Positions 3,690 to 32,704 are shown, counted from the first letter of the stretch. The stretch is DNA of 32,769 nucleotides from an uncultured Gemmatimonadota bacterium (GCA_964566685.1 CAZMKB010000006.1:1-32769), one strand, 5' to 3'. Numbers and translations: made by a program. Notes: a model not told the origin generated them from the letters alone.

Positions 3690-5369
3690 GTGGACCGACC
3701 ATTTCTCCAGCACAGAGCCGCACCCTACTTCATCCTGTTCCTCCTCTCCCTCGCCATCCGCCTCGTCTACCTGTGGGAGATCAGCGGTTCACCGTTCTTC
3801 GATCACGCCGTCGTCGACGAGTACATCTACGATCACATGGCGAAGGCCATAGTCCGGGGTCTCCCCGAACAGAACGGCGTTTTCCGGCCGCCGCTCTATC
3901 CCATGTTCCTCGCCCTCTGGTACGCCATCATCGGCCCCGACGTCGGCATGATGCGGGTCATCCAGATGTTCATCGGTGCCGCGACGACTGTGATGCTCTA
4001 CCACTTCACGAAATCGGCGGTCGACCGGCGGACAGCGCTCGTCGCCGGGCTCCTTCACGCACTGTACTGGCCGGCCGTGCTCTTCCAGGCCGAGCTCCTC
4101 GCCATCTCGATCTTCAGCATCATTCTGCTCTTCACCGTCCACTTCTTCCACCGTGGGACGACGACGGGAGGCTCCCGGTTTTTCCTTGTTTCGGGCCTCT
4201 TTCTCGGCTGCGCGGCGCTCGTGCGGGGGACCGCTCTCCTCGTTCTGCCCGCCCTCCTGATCCATGGAACGGGCATGACGGGAGGCAGGCGGGCGTTCCG
4301 GTCGCTCGCCGTGTTCTGCGTGGCTGCGGGAGTCGTCATATCCCTCTCCGGACTGCGCAATTACGCCCGCACCGGCCACTTCATCCTGCTCTCGTCGAAC
4401 GGAGCGGTCAATTTCTACACGGGAAACGGACCCGAAGCCGACGGTCTGACCCCGGTGCCGCCGGGTGTGGAGTGGAACCGCATGATCAGGGAGCCGATCC
4501 GCCTGGGTCTCACGAGCCCCTCAGCCCAATCCCGGTACTGGCTCGAGAAGACGCTCGGGCACATCACAGGCGATCCCGCGCGCTTCATCGTCCTCTATCT
4601 GAAGAAATGCTACGCCTTCTGGAATGCCTTCGAAGTCTCCAACAACAAAGACATCTATTACATGCGGAACCTGTCGAAACTTCTCTCCCTGCCGCTCCCC
4701 GGATTCGGCCTCGTGGGAGCCCTGGCACTCCTCTCTCTTTTCGTTTGGAGGCGTCTCGGCCGGGAGACGAGACTCGCCTGGATGATCGTCGTCTTTTACA
4801 TGCTCGGCACCGCCCTCTTCTTCGCCGCGGCCCGGTACCGCATGGCGGTCATTCCGTTCTTCATCATCCTCGCGGCATGGAGCGTCACGGACCTCTTCGA
4901 CGACCTGTCACGAAAAAGACCCGGGAGCCTCGCGGGAAAATCGGCTCTTCTCATTCTCTGCCTGCTGTTCGTCAACCTCGACCCGCTCGACATCCGCGCC
5001 TCCGTCAGGACGAGGCCGACTTTTCAGATCGGTCAGATCCTTCTCACGGAGGGGAGAATCGAGGAGGCGCTCGCGCACATGGAGGAGGCGCTCGAGAGAG
5101 ATCCGGACGATCCCGACATCCTGAACAACCTGGGCGTGGCGTACAGGCGGCGGGGAGAGCCGGAAAGAGCCCTCGATTTCTATGAGCGGGCGCTTCGAGA
5201 GGGGGAGTTTTCCGGCGTCAGGTGGAACCTGGGGCTTCTCTACTTCGACCTGGAGCATTACGAAGAGGCGGAGCGCCAGTGGGAGAAGGCTCTCGAAGGC
5301 GATCCGCTCAATCCCGCCATCCGGTCGAATCTTGCGAAGGTTAAACGCCTACTGGCCGGAGATCGGTGA
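3690..5369 (+). CDS. GT-C fold glycosyltransferase (family 39 / ArnT-PMT-like) with C-terminal TPR repeats
   Basis: 559 aa with many predicted TM helices. An acidic first-loop motif VVDEYIYDHMA is present. The C-terminal roughly 130 aa are TPR-like (NNLGVAYRRRGEPERALDFYERAL, WNLGLLYFDLEHYEEAERQWEKAL). GTG start with no clear Shine-Dalgarno. Confidence 0.75.
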   Translation: MDRPFLQHRAAPYFILFLLSLAIRLVYLWEISGSPFFDHAVVDEYIYDHMAKAIVRGLPEQNGVFRPPLYPMFLALWYAIIGPDVGMMRVIQMFIGAATTVMLYHFTKSAVDRRTALVAGLLHALYWPAVLFQAELLAISIFSIILLFTVHFFHRGTTTGGSRFFLVSGLFLGCAALVRGTALLVLPALLIHGTGMTGGRRAFRSLAVFCVAAGVVISLSGLRNYARTGHFILLSSNGAVNFYTGNGPEADGLTPVPPGVEWNRMIREPIRLGLTSPSAQSRYWLEKTLGHITGDPARFIVLYLKKCYAFWNAFEVSNNKDIYYMRNLSKLLSLPLPGFGLVGALALLSLFVWRRLGRETRLAWMIVVFYMLGTALFFAAARYRMAVIPFFIILAAWSVTDLFDDLSRKRPGSLAGKSALLILCLLFVNLDPLDIRASVRTRPTFQIGQILLTEGRIEEALAHMEEALERDPDDPDILNNLGVAYRRRGEPERALDFYERALREGEFSGVRWNLGLLYFDLEHYEEAERQWEKALEGDPLNPAIRSNLAKVKRLLAGDR

Positions 5370-8300
5370 GGAGAAGGACCCGGCGAGCTCTCTGACGCGA
5401 ACGACGTCCCTCGATCGCCGGAAGCACTCCCTCATCTTCCTGTCTTTGAACTTCCGCGAGATCGATCCCGCGATCCTCAGGGCCTTGTCGATTTCCCTCT
5501 TTCCGGCCGCGAGCCGGCCGATCTCCCTCAGGAGCCGCGCGTTCTGGTAGTGGTAGAGCAACTCGAGGTACGGGTCGAGCTCGCCTGCATCGAGCCGAAC
5601 CGTACCGAGCCGATCGAGAGCCTCGCGGGCGCGTCCCTCGGCCTGCATGAGGATGAGCGTCGCGATCATGAACTTCACGGTGTACTCCCTGCTCTTCCTG
5701 TTCGAAGCGAGAGCCTCGAACTCGGTCAGATACTGTCTCGCGGTGTCCAGGCTGCCCTCTTCCGTATTGATTCTGATGAGCCAGAAGAGGTCGTTCATCT
5801 CGTATTCCTTCTTGCCGGTGTTTCTCGAGAGCACGAGGGCCCGTTCGAGATCCCTCCTCGCCTTCCTCGGGTCACCCAGGAAATAACCGGCCATCCCCCT
5901 GTTCCTGATGAAATCCGACTTGCTCCCCTGATCCTTGACCTGCTTGATGTGATCGATCGCCTTCCGGCTCCATTCGTAGGCTTTCGAATAGTCGCCGATC
6001 CGCTGGAATATTTCGCTGATGTTGTTGTAGCTGTATGCCTCGATGATCCTGTTGCCGGTCTCTTTCGCGTTCTCGAGAGCTCTTTCCGCCAGAGAGAGCG
6101 CATTCTCGTACTGCCCGCGCTGCAGTGCGATGATTGCGAGGTTGTTCCTGCACAGCGGCTGATAGGTCTTGTTCCCTGCTTCCTCGAGGATCCGGAGGGT
6201 CTTCCGGTAGTAGGCTTCCGCCCGGTCGCGCTCTTCCTTGTACCAGTAGATGACCCCCATGTTCATGAAGATCTTCGAAAGTCGCAGCTGATCGGGCTGT
6301 CTCCGGTCCATTTCCAGCGCGCGGTCGTAGAACTTGAGAGCCCGGTCGTATTCACCGCTGAAGAGATAGATGTTTCCGAAAGCGGCCAGGCTTTCCGCCT
6401 TGAGGCCGTCATCACCGGTTCCGATCGCATGGCGGAGGGTCCGCATCGAGTAGTCGTACGCGGCTTCGAACTCCCGTTTGAAGATCGATATGCTCGCGAG
6501 ATTCTTCAGTGCCATCCCGAGCTTCCGTTCGTCTCCGAGGGCGGTGCTGAGCTCGAGAACGCTTTCGATGTCGCGCTGGGCCCGCCTGTAGTCCCCGATT
6601 TGCTGGTGCACCAGCCCGCGTTCTTCGTGGAGGATCAGAAGATGCTCATCACCGAACCATTTTCCTCCGGAACGGTAGAGCTTCAGCGCCTTCCCGTAAA
6701 AAACGACGGCTTCGTCGTAGGCGAAGAGATCCCTCGCCTTCCGGGCAGCTCTGACGGCGTACTCGAAGGCCTTCCCGTGATCGCCGCCTGCCTCGAAGTG
6801 GTGTGCGAGCTCCTCGGAGCGCTCTTCCACTCCATGAGGGTCGTACTGCTCGATCGCCGCCGCGGCCCGCCTGTGCAGCTCGACCTTCGTGGTCTCCGGT
6901 ATGCCGGCATAGAGCGCGTGAGCGATGAAATTCTGCACGAATACGTAACGATCACCGTTGAACTCCCTGACCTCCTGGATGATGTTCCCCTGAATGCCCT
7001 CATCGATGATGTCGAGCAGGAATCCCTCGTTCGTCTGCAGGATCGTGAGCAGCACGTCGAACTCGAACTCGTTCCCCAGCACCGAGGCGGCCTGAAACGC
7101 CTTTCTCGCCTCCGGACTCATCTTTTCGATCCGTCGATTGGTGGCTTCCTGTATCGTGGGCGGCAGATCGCTGATGAGCCCCGGCTGTTTCTGCGACTTC
7201 TTCAGGTAATCCACCATCCCCCGGATGAAGAAGGGATTGCCTTCCGTCAGCCGGGAGAGCTCCTCCATCACGCGCTCTTCCGTCTCCTCTCCTTTCAGGA
7301 GGGTCCGGATCATCGCCAGCGACTCCTGCTTCGAAAGGCTCCGCAGAGCGATTTTCCGGTACCGTCCTTCCCGCTCCATCGCCTGGAGCTCCCGTTGCGC
7401 GAGGGCATTCTGGCTCCTTTCGGGAGAATCGGCGGCCGGCCGGCAGGTGCAGACGATCATGATCCGGCCCGACTCCATGGTCCGCGAGAGGAAGTGCAGG
7501 AGCGACAGGGAAGTGACATCAGCCCAGTGTATATCTTCGATAATCATCACGACGCCAACCGCTTCGGCCAGTTTCATGAGAAACTGCCTGAAGGCCTCGA
7601 ATACCAGGAATCGATCCCGTCCCCCGGTTCCGCGCCTGGTTTTCGGCAGTGAGCTCGCCCGTACCCACCGTGGTGCCAGCCGTGCAAGTTCGACGAGAGA
7701 AGCATCAGGCAGGTCGACCGCGTCGATGATCCTGGATTCCTGTTCGTTCGCCAGGCTGTGTGTGAGCAGATCCTTGAACGGAGCGAGCGGTACTTCGGCG
7801 GTCTCCTCGTTGCATTTCCCCCTGAGCGTAAGCATCTTTCTGTGTGCGACCTCGCGGGCTACCTGCTCCATCAGGAAGGTCTTCCCCAGACCGAGCTCAC
7901 CCCGGACGAGAAAGAACCCGGGGTCTCCCGCCTCCGCGCGCCCGACTCCCTTCAGAAGAAGATCGAGCTCCCACTTCTTCCCGAAGACCATCGGGACTCT
8001 GTCGCGGGACTTCGACTTTCTGTTTCCGCCGTCCGTGTGCCTGACGCGAACGGGCTTCCCCCTCGTCTTCGAGAGATACAGTGCCTGGTCGGCGAACTCG
8101 AGGAGACTGACGAGATCGACTGCATCCTCCGGAAACACGGCGAATCCCAGGCTGACCGACACGTCCTCCAGCCGGGCTTCGCATTTTTCCTCCCAGGAGT
8201 AGGTGCGGACGTTGCGCACGATGCGCCGTGCGATACTGAAGGCCTCTTTTTCCATCGCCTCCGGCAGGATGACGACGAACTCGTCCCCCGCCCACCTGCA

Positions 8301-8612
8301 CACGATGTCTTCGTCTCTCACCGATTCCTTGAGAATCGTCCCCACCTGCACCAGCACCCTGTCTCCGATCAGGTGACCGTACGCGTCGTTGATCTCCTTG
8401 AACCTGTTCACATCTATCATCATGAGAGAGAATTTCTTTCCGTGCTTCCTGCAGCGTTTTTCCTCCTCGTCGAGGCGCAGCCGGAAGTAGCGGCGGTTGA
8501 AGAGCCCCGTGAGATCGTCCATCAGGACCAGCTGCCGGAGCTTTTTCGGATCCCAGAACTCCCCCTGTTCGTGCGACGACGTGTCCTTCCTCTTTTCATC
8601 GGAAAAGAGCAT
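5349..8612 (-). CDS. Multidomain signalling protein: N-terminal GGDEF domain (A-site AGDEF, I-site RDED), P-loop NTPase (AAA_16/STAND-like), long TPR array
   Basis: 1087 aa. GGDEF domain: DDLTGLFNRRYF...D(+9 after N)...RDEDIVCRWAGDEFVVIL. AGDEF is encoded at 8277-8291, and RxxD lies 5 residues upstream as in the classic I-site. Walker A is GELGLGKT (7878-7901). Walker B-like is VVMIIEDIHWAD. The C-terminal roughly 600 aa are TPR-like repeats. The 3' end overlaps the convergent GT-C gene by 21 nt. Confidence 0.85.
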   Translation of the reverse strand: MLFSDEKRKDTSSHEQGEFWDPKKLRQLVLMDDLTGLFNRRYFRLRLDEEEKRCRKHGKKFSLMMIDVNRFKEINDAYGHLIGDRVLVQVGTILKESVRDEDIVCRWAGDEFVVILPEAMEKEAFSIARRIVRNVRTYSWEEKCEARLEDVSVSLGFAVFPEDAVDLVSLLEFADQALYLSKTRGKPVRVRHTDGGNRKSKSRDRVPMVFGKKWELDLLLKGVGRAEAGDPGFFLVRGELGLGKTFLMEQVAREVAHRKMLTLRGKCNEETAEVPLAPFKDLLTHSLANEQESRIIDAVDLPDASLVELARLAPRWVRASSLPKTRRGTGGRDRFLVFEAFRQFLMKLAEAVGVVMIIEDIHWADVTSLSLLHFLSRTMESGRIMIVCTCRPAADSPERSQNALAQRELQAMEREGRYRKIALRSLSKQESLAMIRTLLKGEETEERVMEELSRLTEGNPFFIRGMVDYLKKSQKQPGLISDLPPTIQEATNRRIEKMSPEARKAFQAASVLGNEFEFDVLLTILQTNEGFLLDIIDEGIQGNIIQEVREFNGDRYVFVQNFIAHALYAGIPETTKVELHRRAAAAIEQYDPHGVEERSEELAHHFEAGGDHGKAFEYAVRAARKARDLFAYDEAVVFYGKALKLYRSGGKWFGDEHLLILHEERGLVHQQIGDYRRAQRDIESVLELSTALGDERKLGMALKNLASISIFKREFEAAYDYSMRTLRHAIGTGDDGLKAESLAAFGNIYLFSGEYDRALKFYDRALEMDRRQPDQLRLSKIFMNMGVIYWYKEERDRAEAYYRKTLRILEEAGNKTYQPLCRNNLAIIALQRGQYENALSLAERALENAKETGNRIIEAYSYNNISEIFQRIGDYSKAYEWSRKAIDHIKQVKDQGSKSDFIRNRGMAGYFLGDPRKARRDLERALVLSRNTGKKEYEMNDLFWLIRINTEEGSLDTARQYLTEFEALASNRKSREYTVKFMIATLILMQAEGRAREALDRLGTVRLDAGELDPYLELLYHYQNARLLREIGRLAAGKREIDKALRIAGSISRKFKDRKMRECFRRSRDVVRVRELAGSFSSPISGQ

Positions 8613-8827: not shown

Positions 8828-8856
8828 TTGACAACATCCGTATTGTTTGGTACGAT
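8828..8856 (+). promoter_or_regulatory. Sigma70-type promoter candidate for the small secreted protein / BNR gene pair
   Basis: TTGACA (8828-8833), a 17-nt spacer, then TACGAT (8851-8856). The -35 is embedded in the 11-nt palindrome TGTTGACAACA (8826-8836). Confidence 0.45.
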
Positions 8857-8912
8857 TGAAACATCTCGGGGCTGACACTCTCTCCAGATTTACTTTTCGC
8901 ATGGAGGGCATC

Positions 8913-9331
8913 ATGCAGAAGTATCTTCTCTTTTTCGCAGCGATTCTCTCTCTCTCTCTCTGTTGACCGGTACCGTCTACGCAGAGGATGATCCGGATCC
9001 TCTTCCTGATATCATCATCCAGGTCGCAGTTCCGGATACCGTCGACATCTGGGACCGGTTCGATGTAACCATAAAGGTGTGGAATATGGAAGACACGACT
9101 GTGGTCGTCACCGCGTTCGACAGCTTCTTCGATCCTTCGCTTGGGTGGTACATCGGTCAACCGAAAAACCTAACACTCACTGCAAACAGGGATACTACTT
9201 ACGCGGGGCTTGGTTCACCTCATTTAGCAACCCTGGAAGGTACCTGGAAATTTTCTGCGTCCGTCAGTTTTGCGGAGGAAGAAGGTGACATCATCGACCG
9301 AGACTATAGAGAAACTGTAGTCATCGAGTGA
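8913..9331 (+). pseudogene. Small secreted beta-sandwich-like protein, reading frame interrupted inside the signal-peptide region by a (TC)8 tract
   Basis: ATG 8913 has GGAGGG 5 nt upstream and encodes MQKYLLFFAAILSLSLC, then a stop at 8964-8966. The 122-aa ORF 8963..9331 (LTGTVYAEDDPDPLPDIIIQVAVPD...) continues in another frame. Removing one TC unit gives MQKYLLFFAAILSLSLLTGTVYA/EDD..., a textbook signal peptide with an AxA-like cleavage site. Confidence 0.7.
8945..8961. repeat. Dinucleotide simple-sequence repeat (TC)8+T
   Basis: Read directly from the sequence: ttctctctctctctctctctg. It is the only long dinucleotide tract I noticed in the window, and it sits exactly at the frame break of the 8913-9331 gene. 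Confidence 0.95.
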
Positions 9332-9405
9332 AACTGAGTACCATGTCAGCCCCGGGATCACCGTTTTCATGGTATTCTGTGAATCCATCCTTTACGGAGG
9401 ACATC

Positions 9406-11544
9406 GTGCGAAAGAAGCTGACACTCTCTTTGTCTCTGTTCGTAACTGCTCTCTTCGTCCACACAGGTGTGCTCCCCGGTCAGCCAGTCGGGCCCCGGTT
9501 CCTCGAGAGGGGGATTCTTCTCCTCGAGCGGACCGGGACGGGAATTCATCTGTACCCCGAGGGGCCGGCGCTTCACGGGTTCGACCCGGCATCGGCGGGG
9601 CCCGGCGGCGACGTCCCGGGAGACGACATGCGCTCCATAAGGTCCTGGACGAGCGCGCATGGTCCGTATGGCGGGTACATCACCGGACTCACCGTCGATC
9701 CTCAGGATCCTTCAACGATGTATGTGGGCGGCATGGCGTTCGGCCTGTTCAAATCAACCGACGCCGGGGAAACATGGCTGCCGAAGCGAAACGGAATCGT
9801 CTGCGACTGGGTGAACCAGATCGACGTCTTCCCGGGGAATACGAACATCGTCGCAGCAGCCTCGTTCGAGCGGCTGAAGTGGAACGAGGGGGACGTGTAC
9901 GGCTCGATCGACGGTGGTGAGTCCTGGTTCTCCCTCGGTCTCGAGGGGATCGGGTGGTGGAGAGCCGTCCACCTAACGAGAAAGGACCCGCGTCGAATTC
10001 TCGCCGGTGGCGAGGCGGGGATCTATCTCAGCACGGATGCGGGCAAGTCCTGGTCCCACCGGAGCGGTACGACGACGGCCTGGCAGTTCACGAGCGATCC
10101 GTCGAGTCCCGACACCATCTACGCGGGTGGAGGACTGGGGAACAGGTACCGGAGCACCGACGGCGGCGAGAGCTGGAGTGATTTCGCCCAGTCCATTCCC
10201 AGTGACAACCTCTCCGGTGTCGCGGTCGACCCCGGCAATCCGAACACCATCTATTGCTCAGCCTTCTCTTTCCCTGTTGCTGACGGCACCGAGGGTGTAT
10301 ACAGGAGTACGGATTTCGGTGCATCCTGGTCACACATACTCACACAGAATGCGTGGACGATCAGGATCGACCCGTCGAACCCGGAGATGATCTGGGCGGG
10401 TGGAGCAGGGCCGTCATATCTCACCGATCCGAGAGTGTGGAGGAGCACGAACGGTGGTGCGACGTGGACCCAGTACGAGCTCGAAATCGAGCACTATTTC
10501 GCCCCTTCGGTGCACGTACTCGAGGTCGATCCCGGAAACGGGGATGAGGTGTACGTGGGGCTCTATAACGCCGGAGTCATGAGAACGACCGACGGAGGTT
10601 CCACCTGGGAGGACAGGAGCTCGGGACTGTCGGGCACGCTCATGAACTGTATCGCCGTTCATCCTTCCGAGCCGGCGACCATCTACGCAGGGACGTGGCA
10701 GGCCGAGCTCTGGAAGACGACCGACGGAGGAGATTCCTGGTTCTGGTCTTCGAACGGGCTCGACGACATCAATCACTCCGTCATGGATGTGGTCGTCGAC
10801 CCCAATGACCCAGGGACGCTCTTCATGGGAGCGGACAACAGCGGCATCTATCGATCGACCGACGGCGGGAACAGCTGGATCAACGTCTACCCCACCTATG
10901 ACCGGGTCTCCTCCGTCGCCATCAGCCCCCATGACTCGGAGGAGATCTGGGCCGGGAAAATCGGTGGTATCCTCAAATCCGTGGATGGTGGGGACACATG
11001 GGATAACATGCTGCCGGGGTACGCAACGAGTGTCGTTGCCGTGAGCCCGTTCGATCCGGAGCTCGTCTGTGCGGGAAATCTTGCACTCTCCGGGGGCGAC
11101 AAGGTAGTGATCTCGGTGAGCAGAAACGGGGGAGAAACCTGGGAAGAGCGCTACACGGACAGTTATGGAGGAATGATAACGTCACTGACTTTTTCCGAGG
11201 CCTATTCCGGTTTCATCTATGCGACGAGTCTCAATCACAACGTGATCAAGAGCTTTGACGCCGGCTTCACCTGGATTCCAGATTACGGTGGCTTCGATCC
11301 CGGTGGGAGAATCCAGGGGATCGCGGCCGATCCGCTTCGCCACAACACGGTCTATGCCGCAGTGAACGATGACAGGGGATTTTACGCGAGCTTCGACGGT
11401 GGAACCACGTGGTATCCCTTCAACGATGGCCTGTGGGTACGGTCTCTCATCACGCTCGAGGTGAATCCTCTCGGGAGCTACCAGATATTCTACACCGGCA
11501 CGAGCGGAGACGGCATCAGTTACAACTATATCCGGTTGCCCTGA
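9406..11544 (+). CDS. Secreted BNR/Asp-box repeat protein, probably tandem beta-propellers (VPS10/sortilin- or GH74-like fold class)
   Basis: ORF 9328..11544, trimmed to GTG 9406, which has GGAGG (9396-9400) 5 nt upstream and starts VRKKLTLSLSLFVTALFVHTGVLPG (signal-like). It carries 13 copies of the Asp-box S/T-x-D/N-x-G-x-x-W: STDAGETW, SIDGGESW, STDAGKSW, STDGGESW, STDFGASW, STNGGATW, TTDGGSTW, TTDGGDSW, STDGGNSW, SVDGGDTW, SRNGGETW, SFDAGFTW, SFDGGTTW. Confidence 0.8.
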   Translation: MRKKLTLSLSLFVTALFVHTGVLPGQPVGPRFLERGILLLERTGTGIHLYPEGPALHGFDPASAGPGGDVPGDDMRSIRSWTSAHGPYGGYITGLTVDPQDPSTMYVGGMAFGLFKSTDAGETWLPKRNGIVCDWVNQIDVFPGNTNIVAAASFERLKWNEGDVYGSIDGGESWFSLGLEGIGWWRAVHLTRKDPRRILAGGEAGIYLSTDAGKSWSHRSGTTTAWQFTSDPSSPDTIYAGGGLGNRYRSTDGGESWSDFAQSIPSDNLSGVAVDPGNPNTIYCSAFSFPVADGTEGVYRSTDFGASWSHILTQNAWTIRIDPSNPEMIWAGGAGPSYLTDPRVWRSTNGGATWTQYELEIEHYFAPSVHVLEVDPGNGDEVYVGLYNAGVMRTTDGGSTWEDRSSGLSGTLMNCIAVHPSEPATIYAGTWQAELWKTTDGGDSWFWSSNGLDDINHSVMDVVVDPNDPGTLFMGADNSGIYRSTDGGNSWINVYPTYDRVSSVAISPHDSEEIWAGKIGGILKSVDGGDTWDNMLPGYATSVVAVSPFDPELVCAGNLALSGGDKVVISVSRNGGETWEERYTDSYGGMITSLTFSEAYSGFIYATSLNHNVIKSFDAGFTWIPDYGGFDPGGRIQGIAADPLRHNTVYAAVNDDRGFYASFDGGTTWYPFNDGLWVRSLITLEVNPLGSYQIFYTGTSGDGISYNYIRLP

Positions 11545-20485: not shown

Positions 20486-20523
20486 AAAAAAAAGTGAGGG
20501 CGAAGCGTAACGACTCTTCGCCC
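20486..20523 (-). terminator. Rho-independent terminator downstream of the sigma-factor gene
   Basis: Minus strand reads GGGCGAAG (20523-20516), a 10-nt loop, CTTCGCCC (20505-20498), tcac, then T8 (20493-20486). It starts 23 nt after the stop codon at 20546. Confidence 0.75.
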
Positions 20524-20545: not shown

Positions 20546-21400
20546 TCAGTTGAGGAAGGATTCGAGCGGCCTGCTCCGAGAAATGTGCCGCAGCCGGCTG
20601 ATGGCCTTCTCCTTGATCTGCCGGACTCGCTCCCTGGTGATACCGAGAATGGAACCGATTTCTTCGAGGGTCATCGGTTCGCTTCCGTCGAGACCGTAGT
20701 AGAGTTTGAGAATCCTCGCCTCGCGTTCCTTGAGAGTCGAGAGCGACGCCTTGATGGTCGTCGTGAGTGCGTTCTCGTATGTCCCCTCGTCTGGACTCGG
20801 ATGGAAGTCATCTGCGAGGTAGTCGCCGAGCTTGTTGTCCTCGCCGGGGGTGATCGGCGCCTCGAGAGATGCATGCGGCTGGGAGATCTTTAGCGTCTTG
20901 CGAAGCTCTTCGGGATTGAGATCCATTTCCTGGGCGAGCTCCTCGACGCTCGGTTCGCGGCCCAGCGTCTGAGTGAGGGTGTTGGCCTTTCTTCCAACCT
21001 TGTACAGTGCACCCGCTTTGTTGAGAGGCACCCGCACGATTCGTGACTGCTCCGCGAGAGCCTGGAGAATAGCCTGACGGATCCACCACACCGCGTAGGA
21101 GATGAACTTGATCCCCTTCGTTTCGTCGAACTTGAGCGCCGCCCTCATCAACCCGACGTTTCCCTCATTGATGAGATCTGCGAGTGAAACACCCTGGTTC
21201 TGGTATTTCTTCGCCACGCTTACGACGAAACGGAGGTTCGACCTGGTGAGCTTGTTCAGGGAATTCTTGTCTCCCTTCTTGATCCTGCTCGCCAGCTTGA
21301 TTTCCTCCTCCCGGTCGAGAAGCGGATAAGTGGAAATCTCCTTCAAGTACAGATCCAGGGAATCTTCTTCAAAGGAGTTGTCCTTTTTTTTCAGATCCAT
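20546..21400 (-). CDS. rpoD: Sigma-70 family RNA polymerase sigma factor, short primary-like form (regions 1.2, 2, 3 and 4; no long region 1.1)
   Basis: ORF 20546..21430, trimmed to ATG 21400, which has AGGAGG 10 nt upstream. Motifs: LYLKEISTYPLLDREEEIKLA (region 1.2/2.1), NLRFVVSVAKKYQNQG, ISYAVWWIRQAILQALAEQSRIVRVPLNK (2.3/2.4 into 3.0), EARILKLYYGLDGSEPMTLEEIGSILGITRERVRQIKEKAISRLR (4.2). The length and the IVRxPLN block resemble the short primary sigma factors of the Bacteroidota/FCB group as I remember them. Confidence 0.7.
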   Translation of the reverse strand: MDLKKKDNSFEEDSLDLYLKEISTYPLLDREEEIKLASRIKKGDKNSLNKLTRSNLRFVVSVAKKYQNQGVSLADLINEGNVGLMRAALKFDETKGIKFISYAVWWIRQAILQALAEQSRIVRVPLNKAGALYKVGRKANTLTQTLGREPSVEELAQEMDLNPEELRKTLKISQPHASLEAPITPGEDNKLGDYLADDFHPSPDEGTYENALTTTIKASLSTLKEREARILKLYYGLDGSEPMTLEEIGSILGITRERVRQIKEKAISRLRHISRSRPLESFLN

Positions 21401-28900: not shown

Positions 28901-28941
28901 GACCGGATCCTGCTCGAAATCGTATGAATAACCCGGGCTGC
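28901..28941. repeat. Intergenic repeat family, copy B
   Basis: Plus strand reads gaccggatcctGCTCGAAATCGTATGAATAACCCGGGCTGc. It begins at the recR stop codon (28941-28943) and lies about 43 nt upstream of the MglA-like GTG. Confidence 0.7.
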
Positions 28942-29534
28942 TAACGCAGCTCCCGTCTTCCTTCCAGTGCCCGGGATATGGTCACCTCGTCGGCGTATTC
29001 GATGTCCCCGCCCACGGGGAGACCTCTCGCGATTCTGGTCACCTTCACTCCCGCGGGTGCGAGCACCTTTTTCAGATACAGTGCCGTCGCCTCCCCCTCT
29101 ACACTCGGATTGGTTGCGACGATGACCTCGCGTACTTCTCCGTTTCTGACACGGGAGAGGAGTAGATCGACGGTCAACTGTTCCGGACCGATCCCGTCGA
29201 GAGGTGAAAGAACCCCCCCGAGCACATGATAGAGACCCCGGTATTCACCCGAACGCTCGATGGCGCTGACGTCGCTCGCTTCCTCGACGATGCAGATAAC
29301 CGACCTCTCACGGCCCTCGTTCCGGCAGACGTGACAGGGATCCGTTTCCGTGAGATTTGCGCACACCGAGCAGGGCTTCACGTTTTCCTTGACCTCCCTG
29401 AGCGCATTGCACAGTGCGTCCGTCTCACTCTTCGACGTCTTCAGAACGTGATAGGCAAGACGGTGGGCCGTCTTCCGCCCGATTCCGGGAAGCCTGGCGA
29501 ATTCCTCGACGAGTTTCTCGATCGCTCCCGACAT
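28941..29534 (-). CDS. recR: Recombination protein RecR
   Basis: 197 aa. N-terminal HhH region is LVEEFARLPGIGRKTAHRLAYH, the C4 zinc finger is CSVCANLTETDPCHVC, and the Toprim block is ICIVEEASDVSAIE. Confidence 0.92.
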   Translation of the reverse strand: MSGAIEKLVEEFARLPGIGRKTAHRLAYHVLKTSKSETDALCNALREVKENVKPCSVCANLTETDPCHVCRNEGRERSVICIVEEASDVSAIERSGEYRGLYHVLGGVLSPLDGIGPEQLTVDLLLSRVRNGEVREVIVATNPSVEGEATALYLKKVLAPAGVKVTRIARGLPVGGDIEYADEVTISRALEGRRELR

Positions 29535-29549
29535 GGACCGTCCGCAGGA

Positions 29550-29870
29550 TCAGAACAGACCGGGAAGGCTGACGTCTCCCGTCACCTTCTTCATTTCCGC
29601 CGCTGCCATCTCCGAAGCCTGGCCGAGAGCTTCGTTCACGGCGGCGAGCAGAAGATCTTCCAGGAGCTCTATTTCCTCGGGATTGACGACTTCGGGCTTT
29701 ATCCTGATCTCCACGATCTCCTGCTGCCCGCTGGCGATCACCTCGACGACTCCGCCGCCGGCGGAAGCACTGATTCTCTTCTCTGCCAAATCTTCCTGTA
29801 CCTTCTTGATGGCACCCTGCATTTTCTGTGCTTGCTTCAGAAGCTGGCCTATGTTCTTCATCTTCCCCAT
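29550..29870 (-). CDS. ybaB: Nucleoid-associated protein YbaB/EbfC
   Basis: 106 aa. Reads MGKMKNIGQLLKQAQKMQGAIKKVQEDLAEK...GGGVVEVIASGQQEIVEIRIKPEVV...DLLLAAVNEAL. It sits in the canonical position between dnaX and recR. The second ATG (29861) may be the true start, given the GAGGAGG spacing. Confidence 0.9.
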   Translation of the reverse strand: MGKMKNIGQLLKQAQKMQGAIKKVQEDLAEKRISASAGGGVVEVIASGQQEIVEIRIKPEVVNPEEIELLEDLLLAAVNEALGQASEMAAAEMKKVTGDVSLPGLF

Positions 29871-29895
29871 ATCCTCCTCTTTATGTCATGTCCTG

Positions 29896-31479
29896 TTACG
29901 CTCCGTGATCTATCTCCTCGGCATCCAGGATCGCTCTCAGATCGTCGACTGTCGTGTCCGCTCCGGCGCACTCTTCGTCATGCACCGGCGGCGTGCCTTC
30001 TTCATCGAACCGGATCTTCAGAAAAACATTCTTTCCGCACACGCTCGACATGCACTCGTTCATCAGAGAGACGTGTGCAGGGTGCTCGAGCTGCTCCCTG
30101 GTGAAAGAGTTCATGCATCCCGCCCGCAGGGTAAACATCTCTCCGTCGAATGCCAGCGGTTCCGCGCGGGCCAGGAGCCCGAACAGAGTGACTTTCTTCC
30201 GCCTGATCGTTTCCATGAAAAACCGCCAGATCTCGGTCGCGTCACTGCTTTGGACCACCTTCCCGCCGGGATTCTTCCGGGGATTCGAGCCCTCGTTCTT
30301 CACCTTCCCCGCCGCGTTACCCCGGCTCACCTTCTCCGGGCTCTTCCGACCGCCGCCCGTGTCCTTCTCCAGGGAGATGAACCTGAGAAGCATCGTTTCG
30401 AGCATGACCCTCTTGAGTTCGGAATTCCTGAAGAGCTCCCTGGAGAGGGACAGACGGTCGAACATGTCGAACAGGCGCGCTGTCTCGAACTGCGGCAGGA
30501 TGTCCCGGTATTCCGCAATGATGGAGTCCGGCACCTCGAACACGTCCTCCTGCTCGTCCCCCTGCATGAGAACGATGAGATTCCGGATGTGCTCGATGAG
30601 CCCGTCGTAGAGCTCGCAGAGATCGATCCCGCTCAGTGCGACTCTGCCGAGAAGACCGATCACCGTCTTCCCTTCACCGGCGGCGATGCCCTTCAGCAGA
30701 TTCACATACAGTTCATCCTCGACCATACCGGTGACGACGAAGACGTCGTTCGCATCGAAGCCGCCCCCGGCAAACGCACGCAGCTGATCGAAAAGGCTCA
30801 GTGCATCACGGAGGCTGCCTTTCGCCTTTCTTGCGATGGCGTAGCGTGTTTCCTCGCTGAGCTCCAGGCCCTCATGGCCGGCGATCCGGCTCAGATAAGC
30901 CGCAATCGCCGACCTGCCGACCTCCCGGAAATCGAACCGCTGGCACCTGGACAAGATCGTCAGAGGAACCTTCCGGGGCTCGGTCGTCGCAAAGATGAAC
31001 ATGACTCTGTCGGGGGGTTCTTCGAGAGTTTTCAGAAGAGCGTTGAACGCCTCGTTCGTCAGCATGTGCACTTCGTCGATGATGTAGACCTTCGTCGTCG
31101 CCTTGCCGGGTGCATACCCGACCTTCTGCCGGAGATCCCTGACGTCGGCGATCCTCCTGTTCGAAGCTCCGTCTATCTCGATGATGTCGAGCGCTCTGCC
31201 CTCCCTTATCTCGACGCACATGTCGCACTCGTCGCACGGCTCTGCACCGTCGCGCGAGCTGCAGTTGACCGCCTTCGCCAGGATCCTCGCCATCGTCGTC
31301 TTCCCCACACCCCTCGGCCCCGCGAACAGATAGGCGTGCGACAGCCTTCCCTGAACGATCGCGTTCCGGAGAGTCGTGGAAACGTGTTCCTGCGAGAGAA
31401 CCTCGCTGAAGAGACCCGGCCGGTATTTCCTGGCACTCACCAGTGCTGTTTCGACAGGTATCAGAGAATCATTCTTCAT
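29896..31479 (-). CDS. dnaX: DNA polymerase III subunit tau (gamma/tau family clamp-loader ATPase)
   Basis: 527 aa. Motifs: ARKYRPGLFSEVLSQEHV, Walker A GPRGVGKTT, Zn module CSSRDGAEPCDECDMCVEI, Walker B VYIIDEVHML, and SRC motif ILSRCQRF. Confidence 0.92.
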   Translation of the reverse strand: MKNDSLIPVETALVSARKYRPGLFSEVLSQEHVSTTLRNAIVQGRLSHAYLFAGPRGVGKTTMARILAKAVNCSSRDGAEPCDECDMCVEIREGRALDIIEIDGASNRRIADVRDLRQKVGYAPGKATTKVYIIDEVHMLTNEAFNALLKTLEEPPDRVMFIFATTEPRKVPLTILSRCQRFDFREVGRSAIAAYLSRIAGHEGLELSEETRYAIARKAKGSLRDALSLFDQLRAFAGGGFDANDVFVVTGMVEDELYVNLLKGIAAGEGKTVIGLLGRVALSGIDLCELYDGLIEHIRNLIVLMQGDEQEDVFEVPDSIIAEYRDILPQFETARLFDMFDRLSLSRELFRNSELKRVMLETMLLRFISLEKDTGGGRKSPEKVSRGNAAGKVKNEGSNPRKNPGGKVVQSSDATEIWRFFMETIRRKKVTLFGLLARAEPLAFDGEMFTLRAGCMNSFTREQLEHPAHVSLMNECMSSVCGKNVFLKIRFDEEGTPPVHDEECAGADTTVDDLRAILDAEEIDHGA

Positions 31480-31608
31480 CGGACTCGATCCCAGCCCCTG
31501 GATCGGAACTTCCGTGTTGTCAACACGTTCCGGCGAACATCGAATCGGTGGCCGGTCTGTCCGGCGGTGAGATGTATTCCGGGAGAGATCACGACCTCGG
31601 ATTTTGCT

Positions 31609-31637
31609 ATACTAACACCTGTCCAAATCGATGTCAA
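31609..31637 (-). promoter_or_regulatory. Sigma70-type promoter candidate for dnaX-ybaB-recR
   Basis: Minus strand reads TTGACA (31637-31632, overlapping the upstream TGA stop), a 17-nt spacer, then TAGTAT (31614-31609). This implies a leader of roughly 120 nt. Confidence 0.45.
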
Positions 31638-32704
31638 GGCACTCCCGCACCGGTATCGGCACGCAGAGCCCGGAGGTTCTCGCGGGCCGCCCGAAAGCCC
31701 GGCTTGAGCCGCACCGCCTCCATGAAGTGGCGCTCGGCTTCCTCTCTCTTTCCCTCCCCGGCGAGGAGGAGGCCGAGACTGTTGTGGGCGCCGGCATGAT
31801 GCGGCGCTCTCTCGAGCACGTCGAACAGGCACTCCTTCGCCTCTTCGGTGCGGCCGAGAGCCGCGAGCGACTGTCCTCTGGCGAAGAGGATGTCGGGATC
31901 GGAAGGATTCAGAGAGAGAGCATTCTCGAAGTGCTCCAGCGCCTCGTCGAACTCTCCTGTCCGGTGGAGAGCCACTCCGAGGTTGTAGTGCGCCCTGGGC
32001 TGGTTCCGATTCACGGCCAGTGCGCGCCGGTACTCCCGGATGGCGGCTTCGAAGTTCCCCGTCCGGGCCAGTGCGAACCCGCGGTTGACATAGGGTTCCG
32101 CATAGGTTGGTTTGATCTCCGTTGCTCTGCGGAAATGCTCGAGCGCCTCGGAGGTTCTTCCCTGCCTGTCGAGGGCGATTCCGAGGTTGTTGTGAGCCAC
32201 GTAGTTGCCGGTGGTGACGTGGATCGCGTGCCGGAACAGCCGGATCTCGTCCTGCCAGAAGCCGACCTGTCTTCTCGTCGCGAAGAAGCAGGCGACGACG
32301 ATCCCGATGGAAAGGACCGCGGACAGGGAGACACGAAACCGGTTCCCCGCCGCCCACCCGGCGATGACCCAGACGAATCCCGTGAAGAGTCCGACAGCGG
32401 GAAGGTAGAGGTAGCGGTCGGCCAGAGCCTGTGCTCCCTGCTGAACGAGGCCGATCACCGGCACCAGGATGCCGAGATACCAGAAGACACCGACGGCGAA
32501 GGCGGGGGAACGGCGGACGTACCTGACGGCCGGGAACAGGAGGAGCAGGATGAGGAGAACGGAACCGATGACGGTCCACAGGGGAAGTCTGTCCAGCGGG
32601 TGGGGATAGAAGACCGCGAGGTCAACGGGGATGATGAGCTTTCTGATGTAGGTGACGTACGAAACGACCACGTTTCCGAGACGAACATCGAGCCCGATAT
32701 CCAT
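31634..32704 (-). CDS. TMTC/DUF1736-like membrane protein with C-terminal TPR repeats; apparently lacks the N-terminal GT-C catalytic half
   Basis: 356 aa. N-terminus is VSYVTYIRKLIIPVDLAVFYPHP (DUF1736-like), then 4-5 TM helices and at least six TPRs (e.g. AHNNLGIALDRQGRTSEALEHFRRATEI, AHYNLGVALHRTGEFDEALEHFENAL). An in-frame stop lies at 32744-32746, so the ORF cannot extend further upstream. Confidence 0.7.
   Translation of the reverse strand: MDIGLDVRLGNVVVSYVTYIRKLIIPVDLAVFYPHPLDRLPLWTVIGSVLLILLLLFPAVRYVRRSPAFAVGVFWYLGILVPVIGLVQQGAQALADRYLYLPAVGLFTGFVWVIAGWAAGNRFRVSLSAVLSIGIVVACFFATRRQVGFWQDEIRLFRHAIHVTTGNYVAHNNLGIALDRQGRTSEALEHFRRATEIKPTYAEPYVNRGFALARTGNFEAAIREYRRALAVNRNQPRAHYNLGVALHRTGEFDEALEHFENALSLNPSDPDILFARGQSLAALGRTEEAKECLFDVLERAPHHAGAHNSLGLLLAGEGKREEAERHFMEAVRLKPGFRAARENLRALRADTGAGVP

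Follow-up and report, generated by a model that had tools for sequence, protein, structure and literature searches.

A gene for a small secreted protein in the stretch of DNA analysed here (32,769 nt, hereafter the window) is split into two reading frames by a (TC)8 dinucleotide tract located in its signal-peptide coding region. On comparison with the relatives of the gene, the tract is one unit over the in-frame length of seven. The explanation put forward, to which about an even chance of being correct is given, is a genuine and recent replication slip of one additional unit in an incidentally hypermutable tract, which would have left an OFF allele that can be reverted by the loss of one unit or the gain of two.

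Gene anatomy and reading frames

The ATG of the small gene (8913, forward strand) follows the Shine-Dalgarno sequence GGAGGG (8903-8908) after 4 nt; the relatives carry GAGGGGG at the matching position. Frame 0 from this ATG reads MQKYLLFFAAILSLSLC and stops at TGA 8964-8966. The resulting fragment of 17 codons plus stop (8913-8966, forward strand) comprises the n- and h-regions of a signal peptide and can be aligned to the signal peptides MWKKILVFSAVLSLSLL, MWKKLLMLVAVLSVVLV and MRSFSLLVMSLVCL of the relatives. The (TC)8 tract (8945-8960, forward strand) starts at nt 33 of the gene, occupies codons 11-16 of the small ORF and codes for L-S-L-S-L of the h-region. A T at 8961 follows directly, so that the tract may also be written as (TC)8T (8945-8961); TRF gives 8.5 copies at 100%. 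The rest of the gene lies in a second frame with an offset of +2 nt (8963-9331, forward strand), which codes for TGTVYAEDDPDP..., is open for 122 codons and stops at 9329-9331. Encoded in it are the c-region TGTVYA, with signal-peptide cleavage predicted after the Ala at 8981-8983 that ends this motif, and a mature all-beta protein of ~115 aa. No start codon is present upstream of the TTG at 8963 in the +2 frame, which is therefore unable to carry a signal peptide of its own. The initial annotation had described the GGAGGG, the ATG, the tract, the TGA at 8964 and the displaced second frame, and all of its coordinates were confirmed. Its further statement that the two parts are fused by removal of one TC unit or addition of two was reproduced when tract lengths of 5-12 units were modelled in silico: full-length in-frame products of 138 aa and 140 aa are obtained with n = 7 and n = 10, and translation stops after 17-28 codons with n = 8, 9, 11, and 12.

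At 17 nt, the TC tract is the longest period-2 run of the window. In 300 first-order Markov simulations of the window, the longest run averaged 9.8 nt and did not exceed 15, so that 16 nt was not reached once; the tract is beyond chance. No further long simple repeat was found in the 32.8 kb, the runners-up being A8, T8, C7, and (AG)5. The T8 (21384-21391; A8 on the coding strand) lies near codons 13-15 of a sigma-70-family gene, and an A8 (20486-20493) is located just downstream of the same gene. Both are in frame and under the usual cutoff of at least 10 for A/T tracts.

Relatives and conservation of the small gene

The repaired precursor was compared with 5.8 billion proteins and gave one relative, P0002, with 53% identity over 98% of the query, N-terminus included. 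An exhaustive HMM search of 1.84 billion representative proteins yielded four clusters in total, including that of the window (the new ones are P0123 and P0124), as well as two weak matches to large CARDB or prealbumin-like repeat proteins. The DNA of the relatives was obtained via P0002 and via orthologues of the BNR protein encoded downstream; loci beyond P0002 were reachable only through the orthologous BNR protein. GTDB species genomes scanned with the small protein and with the BNR protein contained no further copy. Metagenome contigs were scanned with protein patterns and with a conserved 21-nt DNA probe, and neither scan yielded a true relative; five matches of the probe in these contigs were false by tblastn. 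The exact product of the window ORF has no record elsewhere, its protein clusters consisting of one member from one contig, and the product P0009 is likewise without a record elsewhere. The family is very rare, with four members, each next to a BNR propeller gene.

The three relatives (loci L001, L007, and L008/L009) each have an intact copy of the small gene, in a single frame and with a signal peptide; these signal peptides are MWKKILVFSAVLSLSLLVTTELPAQ, MWKKLLMLVAVLSVVLVATDLLAQ, and MRSFSLLVMSLVCLMSRATVVQA, followed by D, G, and G, respectively. The part of the window protein encoded in the second frame is 44-55% identical to the three relatives. Across the four proteins 29 residues are invariant, including the motifs PDTV, NxEDTxVVV, GxxSPHxA, GxWxF, and GIIDRD, and all 29 are retained in the window copy. 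Judged by this conservation, the small gene is a genuine conserved secreted-protein gene and not a chance ORF. Its first description as a secreted-protein gene is borne out by the three in-frame relatives of like architecture. The locus of a more distant propeller orthologue (L010/L011) is without the small gene. The constant position just upstream of one subclade of BNR/Sortilin-Vps10 propellers suggests that the small protein may be a dedicated partner of the propeller.

Automatic gene calls misplace the start in this family. The window ORF was called (P0001) as a leaderless 122-aa protein from TTG 8963. The copy in L008 (3484-3921) was called from an internal ATG (3526), by which the signal peptide is dropped and the true ATG missed (the same in L008/L009), and the copy in L001 was called from 4409, 13 codons too early.

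Predicted structure and base composition

The AF2 model of the small protein is a 7-strand beta-sandwich with a pLDDT of 71. Among compact structural matches, the CARDB domain 3idu ranks first (TM 0.61), and the model fits generic Ig-like/FnIII-type domains of GH3 enzymes as well. A 2-sequence HMM of the family gave a weak match to a CARDB-containing protein (E = 1e-5), and none of the four family members matched a Pfam family.

The small gene had been noted as visibly AT-richer than its neighbours, and this holds both for total GC (0.48-0.53 versus about 0.60) and for GC3. The latter is 0.55 in the small gene, 0.75 in the adjacent propeller gene, and 0.72-0.81 in the other genes of the window, whereas in the relatives it is similar in the small and the propeller genes (0.57-0.62). 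The low GC3 of the window copy might reflect local recombination or transfer, or else a different selective regime.

Ancestral tract length and origin of the pure run

At nt 33 of the gene, L001, the closest relative, reads GTT CTC TCT CTT TCT CTT CTC (V-L-S-L-S-L-L). The window modelled with seven units reads ATT CTC TCT CTC TCT CTG TTG (I-L-S-L-S-L-L). Since LSLSLL stands at an equal offset in L001 and its length is reproduced only by n = 7, (TC)7 is the ancestral in-frame state.

The TC stretches of the relatives are an interrupted (TC)4.5 in L001, (TC)3.5 in L007, and (TC)4 at a different position in L008. The initial annotation had held that absence of the tract from all relatives would argue against a switch; the long pure repeat is indeed absent in all three, and the test is a weak one because the relatives are distant (44-55% identity). 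The purity of the run in the window stems from its Leu codons, which are CTC there and not CTT; CTC makes up 57% of the Leu codons in the genes of the window and CTT 7.7%. Both Ser codons of the tract are TCT, a codon that accounts for 6.6% of Ser codons in the window, and they are shared with L001, which makes them ancestral. A neutral route to the pure run is thus available, by which synonymous drift from CTT to CTC under GC3 pressure would suffice. The same peptide motif, LSLSL, is also found in the signal peptide of the propeller, where it is coded by the non-repetitive codons CTC TCT TTG TCT CTG (9424-9438), and it can therefore exist without need for a DNA repeat.

Cause of the split

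The tract had been named at the outset as the cause of the split, and its length is the sole defect found in the gene, the closest relative showing seven units to be the in-frame length. Gradual decay into a pseudogene is ruled against by the open frame of 122 codons, the retention of all 29 invariant residues, the intact promoter, Shine-Dalgarno sequence, and ATG, and a normal divergence ratio between the small protein and the BNR protein (1.15-1.41 in pairs with the window versus 1.14-1.72 in other pairs). Since all but the 2-nt excess is intact, the change is recent, reversible, or artefactual.

An artefact of assembly or sequencing would imply an intact gene with a true tract of (TC)7 or (TC)10, the extra unit being due to PCR or sequencing stutter or to consensus calling in low-complexity sequence. 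Just one repeat unit is in excess, in the sole low-complexity stretch of the gene, and the remainder is flawless, as an artefact predicts. The contig is of metagenome type and from an uncultured organism, and the collections searched hold no independent assembly (clusters of one member, one contig). However, the ~28 other genes of the window have full-length domain matches and no split ORFs, and no other frameshift was found in the window as a sign of poor assembly. The intact genes include recR with C7 (29213-29219) and the sigma factor gene with T8 (21384-21391), homopolymers at which an indel-prone assembly would be expected to fail first. A dinucleotide run of 16 nt fits well inside a short read and is not known as a frequent source of consensus errors. 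The base-level assembly quality of the window looks good, and the ~28 intact genes make an indel artefact less probable; it is kept as an unlikely possibility.

Recoding offers another way of reading the locus, in which the (TC)8 tract would be passed by a +2 or -1 ribosomal slip or by RNA polymerase slippage, or in which re-initiation at TTG 8963 would yield a leaderless cytoplasmic form. For CUC and UCU, codon-anticodon pairing is fully regained once the frame has moved by 2 nt within the run, and the stop codon overlaps the TTG in TGTTGA. Against programmed frameshifting stand the three single-frame relatives, in which no shift is conserved, the absence of an X XXY YYZ slippery heptamer, and the absence of a stimulatory RNA structure downstream of the tract (the fold of 8940-9060 has z = 0.22 versus shuffles). 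The TTG at 8963 has no Shine-Dalgarno sequence, and a product without signal peptide would be unlike the exported relatives. Neither efficient +2 frameshifting nor dinucleotide transcriptional slippage is known as an established mechanism. Recoding in any of these forms is considered highly improbable.

The initial annotation had read the tract as a candidate ON/OFF switch. An evolved contingency locus would be one in which (TC)n is kept by selection as a stochastic and reversible device and the window was captured in the OFF phase. Such a locus might also have polar effects on the propeller gene and would be analogous to the CT repeats of Helicobacter pylori oipA, hopZ, and sabA, a precedent for this exact design. 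The tract has 8 units, above the cutoff of at least 6 units for dinucleotide repeats in phase-variable genes (PhasomeIt criteria, PMC6321876), it is located in the 5' part of the coding region, and its unit is not divisible by 3. In silico, the gene is ON at 7 or 10 units and OFF at 8 or 9, and it is otherwise perfectly intact. A secreted product whose gene shares an operon-like arrangement with that of a surface or secreted propeller belongs to the typical target class, and both Ser codons of the tract are the rare TCT. On the other hand, the TC stretches of the relatives are short and interrupted, with at most 4.5 units, that of L008 lying elsewhere, and no second long SSR exists within the 32.8 kb, a single window of the genome. 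The TCT codons are ancestral and the purity of the run results from the genome-preferred CTC, so that selection for repetitiveness is not needed; moreover, the codon usage of the small gene is atypical throughout (GC3 0.55), hence TCT is unremarkable there. The authors of the cutoff themselves state that passing it is no proof of efficient reversible switching (PMC6321876). What stood of the switch reading is a real gene, a tract that is its only lesion, and a repeat number above the cutoff; the step from a hypermutable tract to a contingency switch found no support. An evolved switch is accordingly rated as unlikely, and the comparative evidence, as far as the aligned loci allow, favours an incidental hypermutable tract over it.

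The preferred explanation, a single recent slip in an incidental tract, would proceed as follows. The L-S-L-S-L codons of the signal peptide would have turned into a pure TC run in the lineage of the window. One slipped-strand mispairing during replication would then have extended (TC)7 to (TC)8, adding one unit and 2 nt. Translation from ATG 8913 would halt after 17 codons, the exported protein would not be made, and the allele would be OFF or null. The gene would come back into frame if the run lost one unit or gained two, which makes the change reversible in principle; a dinucleotide run of 16 nt is intrinsically hypermutable. We infer that the frameshift is located in the DNA and not in the assembly, that slippage caused the extra unit, and that the OFF state is reversible. 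If the gene is useful, it is a little surprising that the dominant genotype should be OFF when the relatives have kept the gene; either an artefact or an adaptive OFF phase could lie behind this.

Comparison with known repeat-containing genes

In Neisseria, the opa genes form a multigene family with a conserved repeat, in which CTCTT pentamers are repeated in the signal-peptide region. Like opa, the window gene has a pyrimidine-rich repeat that codes for the hydrophobic core of the signal peptide, and its frame is set by copy number. Unlike opa, its unit is a dimer and not a pentamer, and there is no homology between the proteins.

A closer analogue, and the better analogy for the design of the locus, is provided by the CT repeats of H. 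pylori oipA and hopZ. In this species, oipA (hopH), hopZ, sabA, and babB carry CT repeats in the 5' signal-peptide coding region and are switched by slipped-strand mispairing (PMC10564699, PMC3960876). For oipA, 5-11 repeats were reported; the tract is length-polymorphic over hundreds of H. pylori strains, and switching was shown experimentally (PMC10564699, PMC3960876). The window gene shares with the Hop genes the CT/TC unit, the signal-peptide location, a frame set by tract length, and an OFF stop soon after the tract, and its tract is comparable with the range of lengths of oipA. Its product, in contrast to the Hop proteins, is predicted to be a small, possibly CARDB-like beta-sandwich and not an outer-membrane beta-barrel, and has no protein homology to them. 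Membership in the Hop outer-membrane family was rejected, as the protein has no Pfam family and is predicted to be a beta-sandwich of ~115 aa; the likeness is one of mechanism only. The window tract is, unlike the repeats of H. pylori, absent from all known relatives and known from a single sequence. H. pylori is a host-adapted pathogen rich in SSR loci, whereas the organism of the window is an uncultured environmental bacterium.

Frameshift nulls and nascent pseudogenes that are generated by slippage at incidental microsatellites are a general concept. The window gene resembles such nulls in its single-unit expansion, in the purity of its run by synonymous drift, in being otherwise intact, and in showing no sign of selection for the repeat. 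It differs from pseudogenes at incidental microsatellites in having neither secondary inactivating mutations nor faster divergence; if it is a pseudogene, it would be a very young one that is still revertible.

The locus also resembles predictions of the PhasomeIt type, having a dinucleotide tract of at least 6 units in an ORF and its longest product in one of three frames (PMC6321876). Calls of this kind gain weight from conservation over many genomes (PMC6321876), whereas the window locus is without such conservation.

Promoter, downstream propeller gene, and neighbours

The small gene is preceded on the forward strand by a predicted sigma-70-type promoter (8828-8856), consisting of TTGACA (8828-8833), a 17-nt spacer, and TG-TACGAT with the -10 box at 8851-8856; 10 of 12 positions match and the -10 box is extended by the TG. 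A promoter candidate belonging to the gene itself had been proposed before, and this element agrees with it. L001 has TTGACA-17-TATAAT at the equivalent position, and L007 has promoter-like hexamers. As read from the aligned loci, the position of the promoter, the Shine-Dalgarno sequence, the start codon, and the spacing to the propeller gene are conserved.

Downstream on the same strand (9406-11544) lies the gene for a secreted beta-propeller of 712 aa and of the BNR/Asp-box (Sortilin-Vps10) type, with a GTG start and the Shine-Dalgarno sequence GGAGGA (9396-9401). The protein matches Pfam PF15902 (Sortilin-Vps10, E = 4e-31) as well as BNR and PSII_BNR. The 13 Asp-boxes ascribed to it earlier were recovered with a relaxed motif, and 9 with a strict one. 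In L001, L007, and L008/L009, too, the next gene after the small one codes for an orthologue of ~710 aa, at a spacing of ~75-85 nt, the spacer in the window being 74 nt. The short spacer, in which no terminator was predicted, and the conserved synteny make it plausible that the two genes are co-transcribed, with the small gene as the first of a two-gene unit. A polar effect of tract switching on the propeller gene would likewise be plausible.

Divergently oriented (5349-8612, reverse strand) is the gene for a 1087-aa protein with an N-terminal GGDEF diguanylate cyclase domain, an AAA_16/STAND-type NTPase, and many TPR repeats, whose start is 300 nt from the ATG of the small gene. Further away, the dnaX-ybaB-recR cluster (28941-31611, reverse strand) is ordinary; the best named relatives of its RecR are from Zixibacteria, with ~65% identity, and closer RecR proteins with 90-91% identity (P0128, P0129) are encoded on short contigs. 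An ORF of 724 aa over this cluster (29533-31707, forward strand) was rejected as a spurious high-GC shadow ORF.

Long-range RNA helix around the small cistron

In each of the four loci, the strongest inverted repeat of the region has its two arms on either side of the small cistron. In the window, the 5' arm ATCTCGGGGCTGACA (8863-8877, forward strand), located at the predicted 5' end of the mRNA, can form 15 bp, one of them U.G, with the 3' arm TGTCAGCCCCGGGAT (9344-9358, forward strand), which begins 12 nt past the stop of the small ORF. The arms of the relatives are at 4402-4418/4871-4887 in L001, 398-427/859-888 in L007, and 3430-3444/3953-3967 in L008. In the four loci the first arm lies 7-12 nt after the -10 box and the second 12-31 nt past the stop codon, and the loop enclosed by the helix (~430-510 nt) holds the whole small cistron.

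The arms have a GCUG/CAGC core in common, and the flanking pairs vary between loci yet remain complementary. In an ungapped core-anchored alignment, 80.6% of cells are paired, versus 29-47% after displacement of the partner by 1-3 columns, and 10 of 18 helix pairs have double-sided changes; the observed values were reached by 0-1 of 500 shuffles, in an alignment of only four sequences with a register chosen by the analyst. Partition-function folds of the whole transcripts (~560 nt; 566 nt for the window) gave helix pair probabilities of ~1.0 for the window and for L007, 0.94 for L008, and 0.32 for L001. RNAduplex energies of the 5' UTR against the spacer were not discriminating (p = 0.02-0.2, with non-cognate pairs scoring alike), and the helix was therefore judged by positional covariation together with the whole-transcript pair probabilities. 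No Rfam element was detected in the region, either at the gathering threshold or at E ≤ 1. By these two measures, a conserved and covarying long-range mRNA helix is predicted to enclose the small cistron in all four loci.

Each of the three near-matches in the arms is a G.U pair when read on the sense strand, which favours a role in RNA over one in DNA. A DNA inverton is also unlikely from the lack of a recombinase gene in the four loci and the location of the promoter outside the arms. The helix might act as an RNase III-type processing stem, protect the 5' end, or link translation of the small ORF to the downstream message.

An exact 13-nt direct repeat, GCTGACACTCTCT, occurs at 8871-8883 in the 5' UTR, where it overlaps the 5' arm, and at 9417-9429 among the signal-peptide codons of the propeller. 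Through this repeat the 3' arm could pair instead with 9417-9423, enclosing the Shine-Dalgarno sequence and start of the propeller gene. Inspection of L001 by eye showed no counterpart, and the repeat may be due to chance.

A combined model, in which a working switch in a free-living uncultured bacterium with kinship to Zixibacteria toggles a secreted CARDB-like partner of the BNR propeller, and the translation state of the helix-enclosed cistron (17 versus 138 codons) alters processing, stability, or expression of the propeller mRNA, is regarded as decidedly unlikely. If true, a change of two bases in a repeat would control a two-gene secreted module.

Implications for the organism and the family

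As it stands, the value of the finding is mainly practical and consists in the corrected annotation of a small gene, which should be entered as a 138-aa secreted precursor that is frameshifted and possibly phase-variable, in place of a leaderless 122-aa protein from TTG. The long-range helix around the cistron is perhaps a more original lead than the tract. If the frameshift is real and the tract variable in length, the locus would represent, in a little-studied uncultured lineage, repeat-driven ON/OFF control of a secreted protein, of the design known from oipA, outside host-adapted pathogens.
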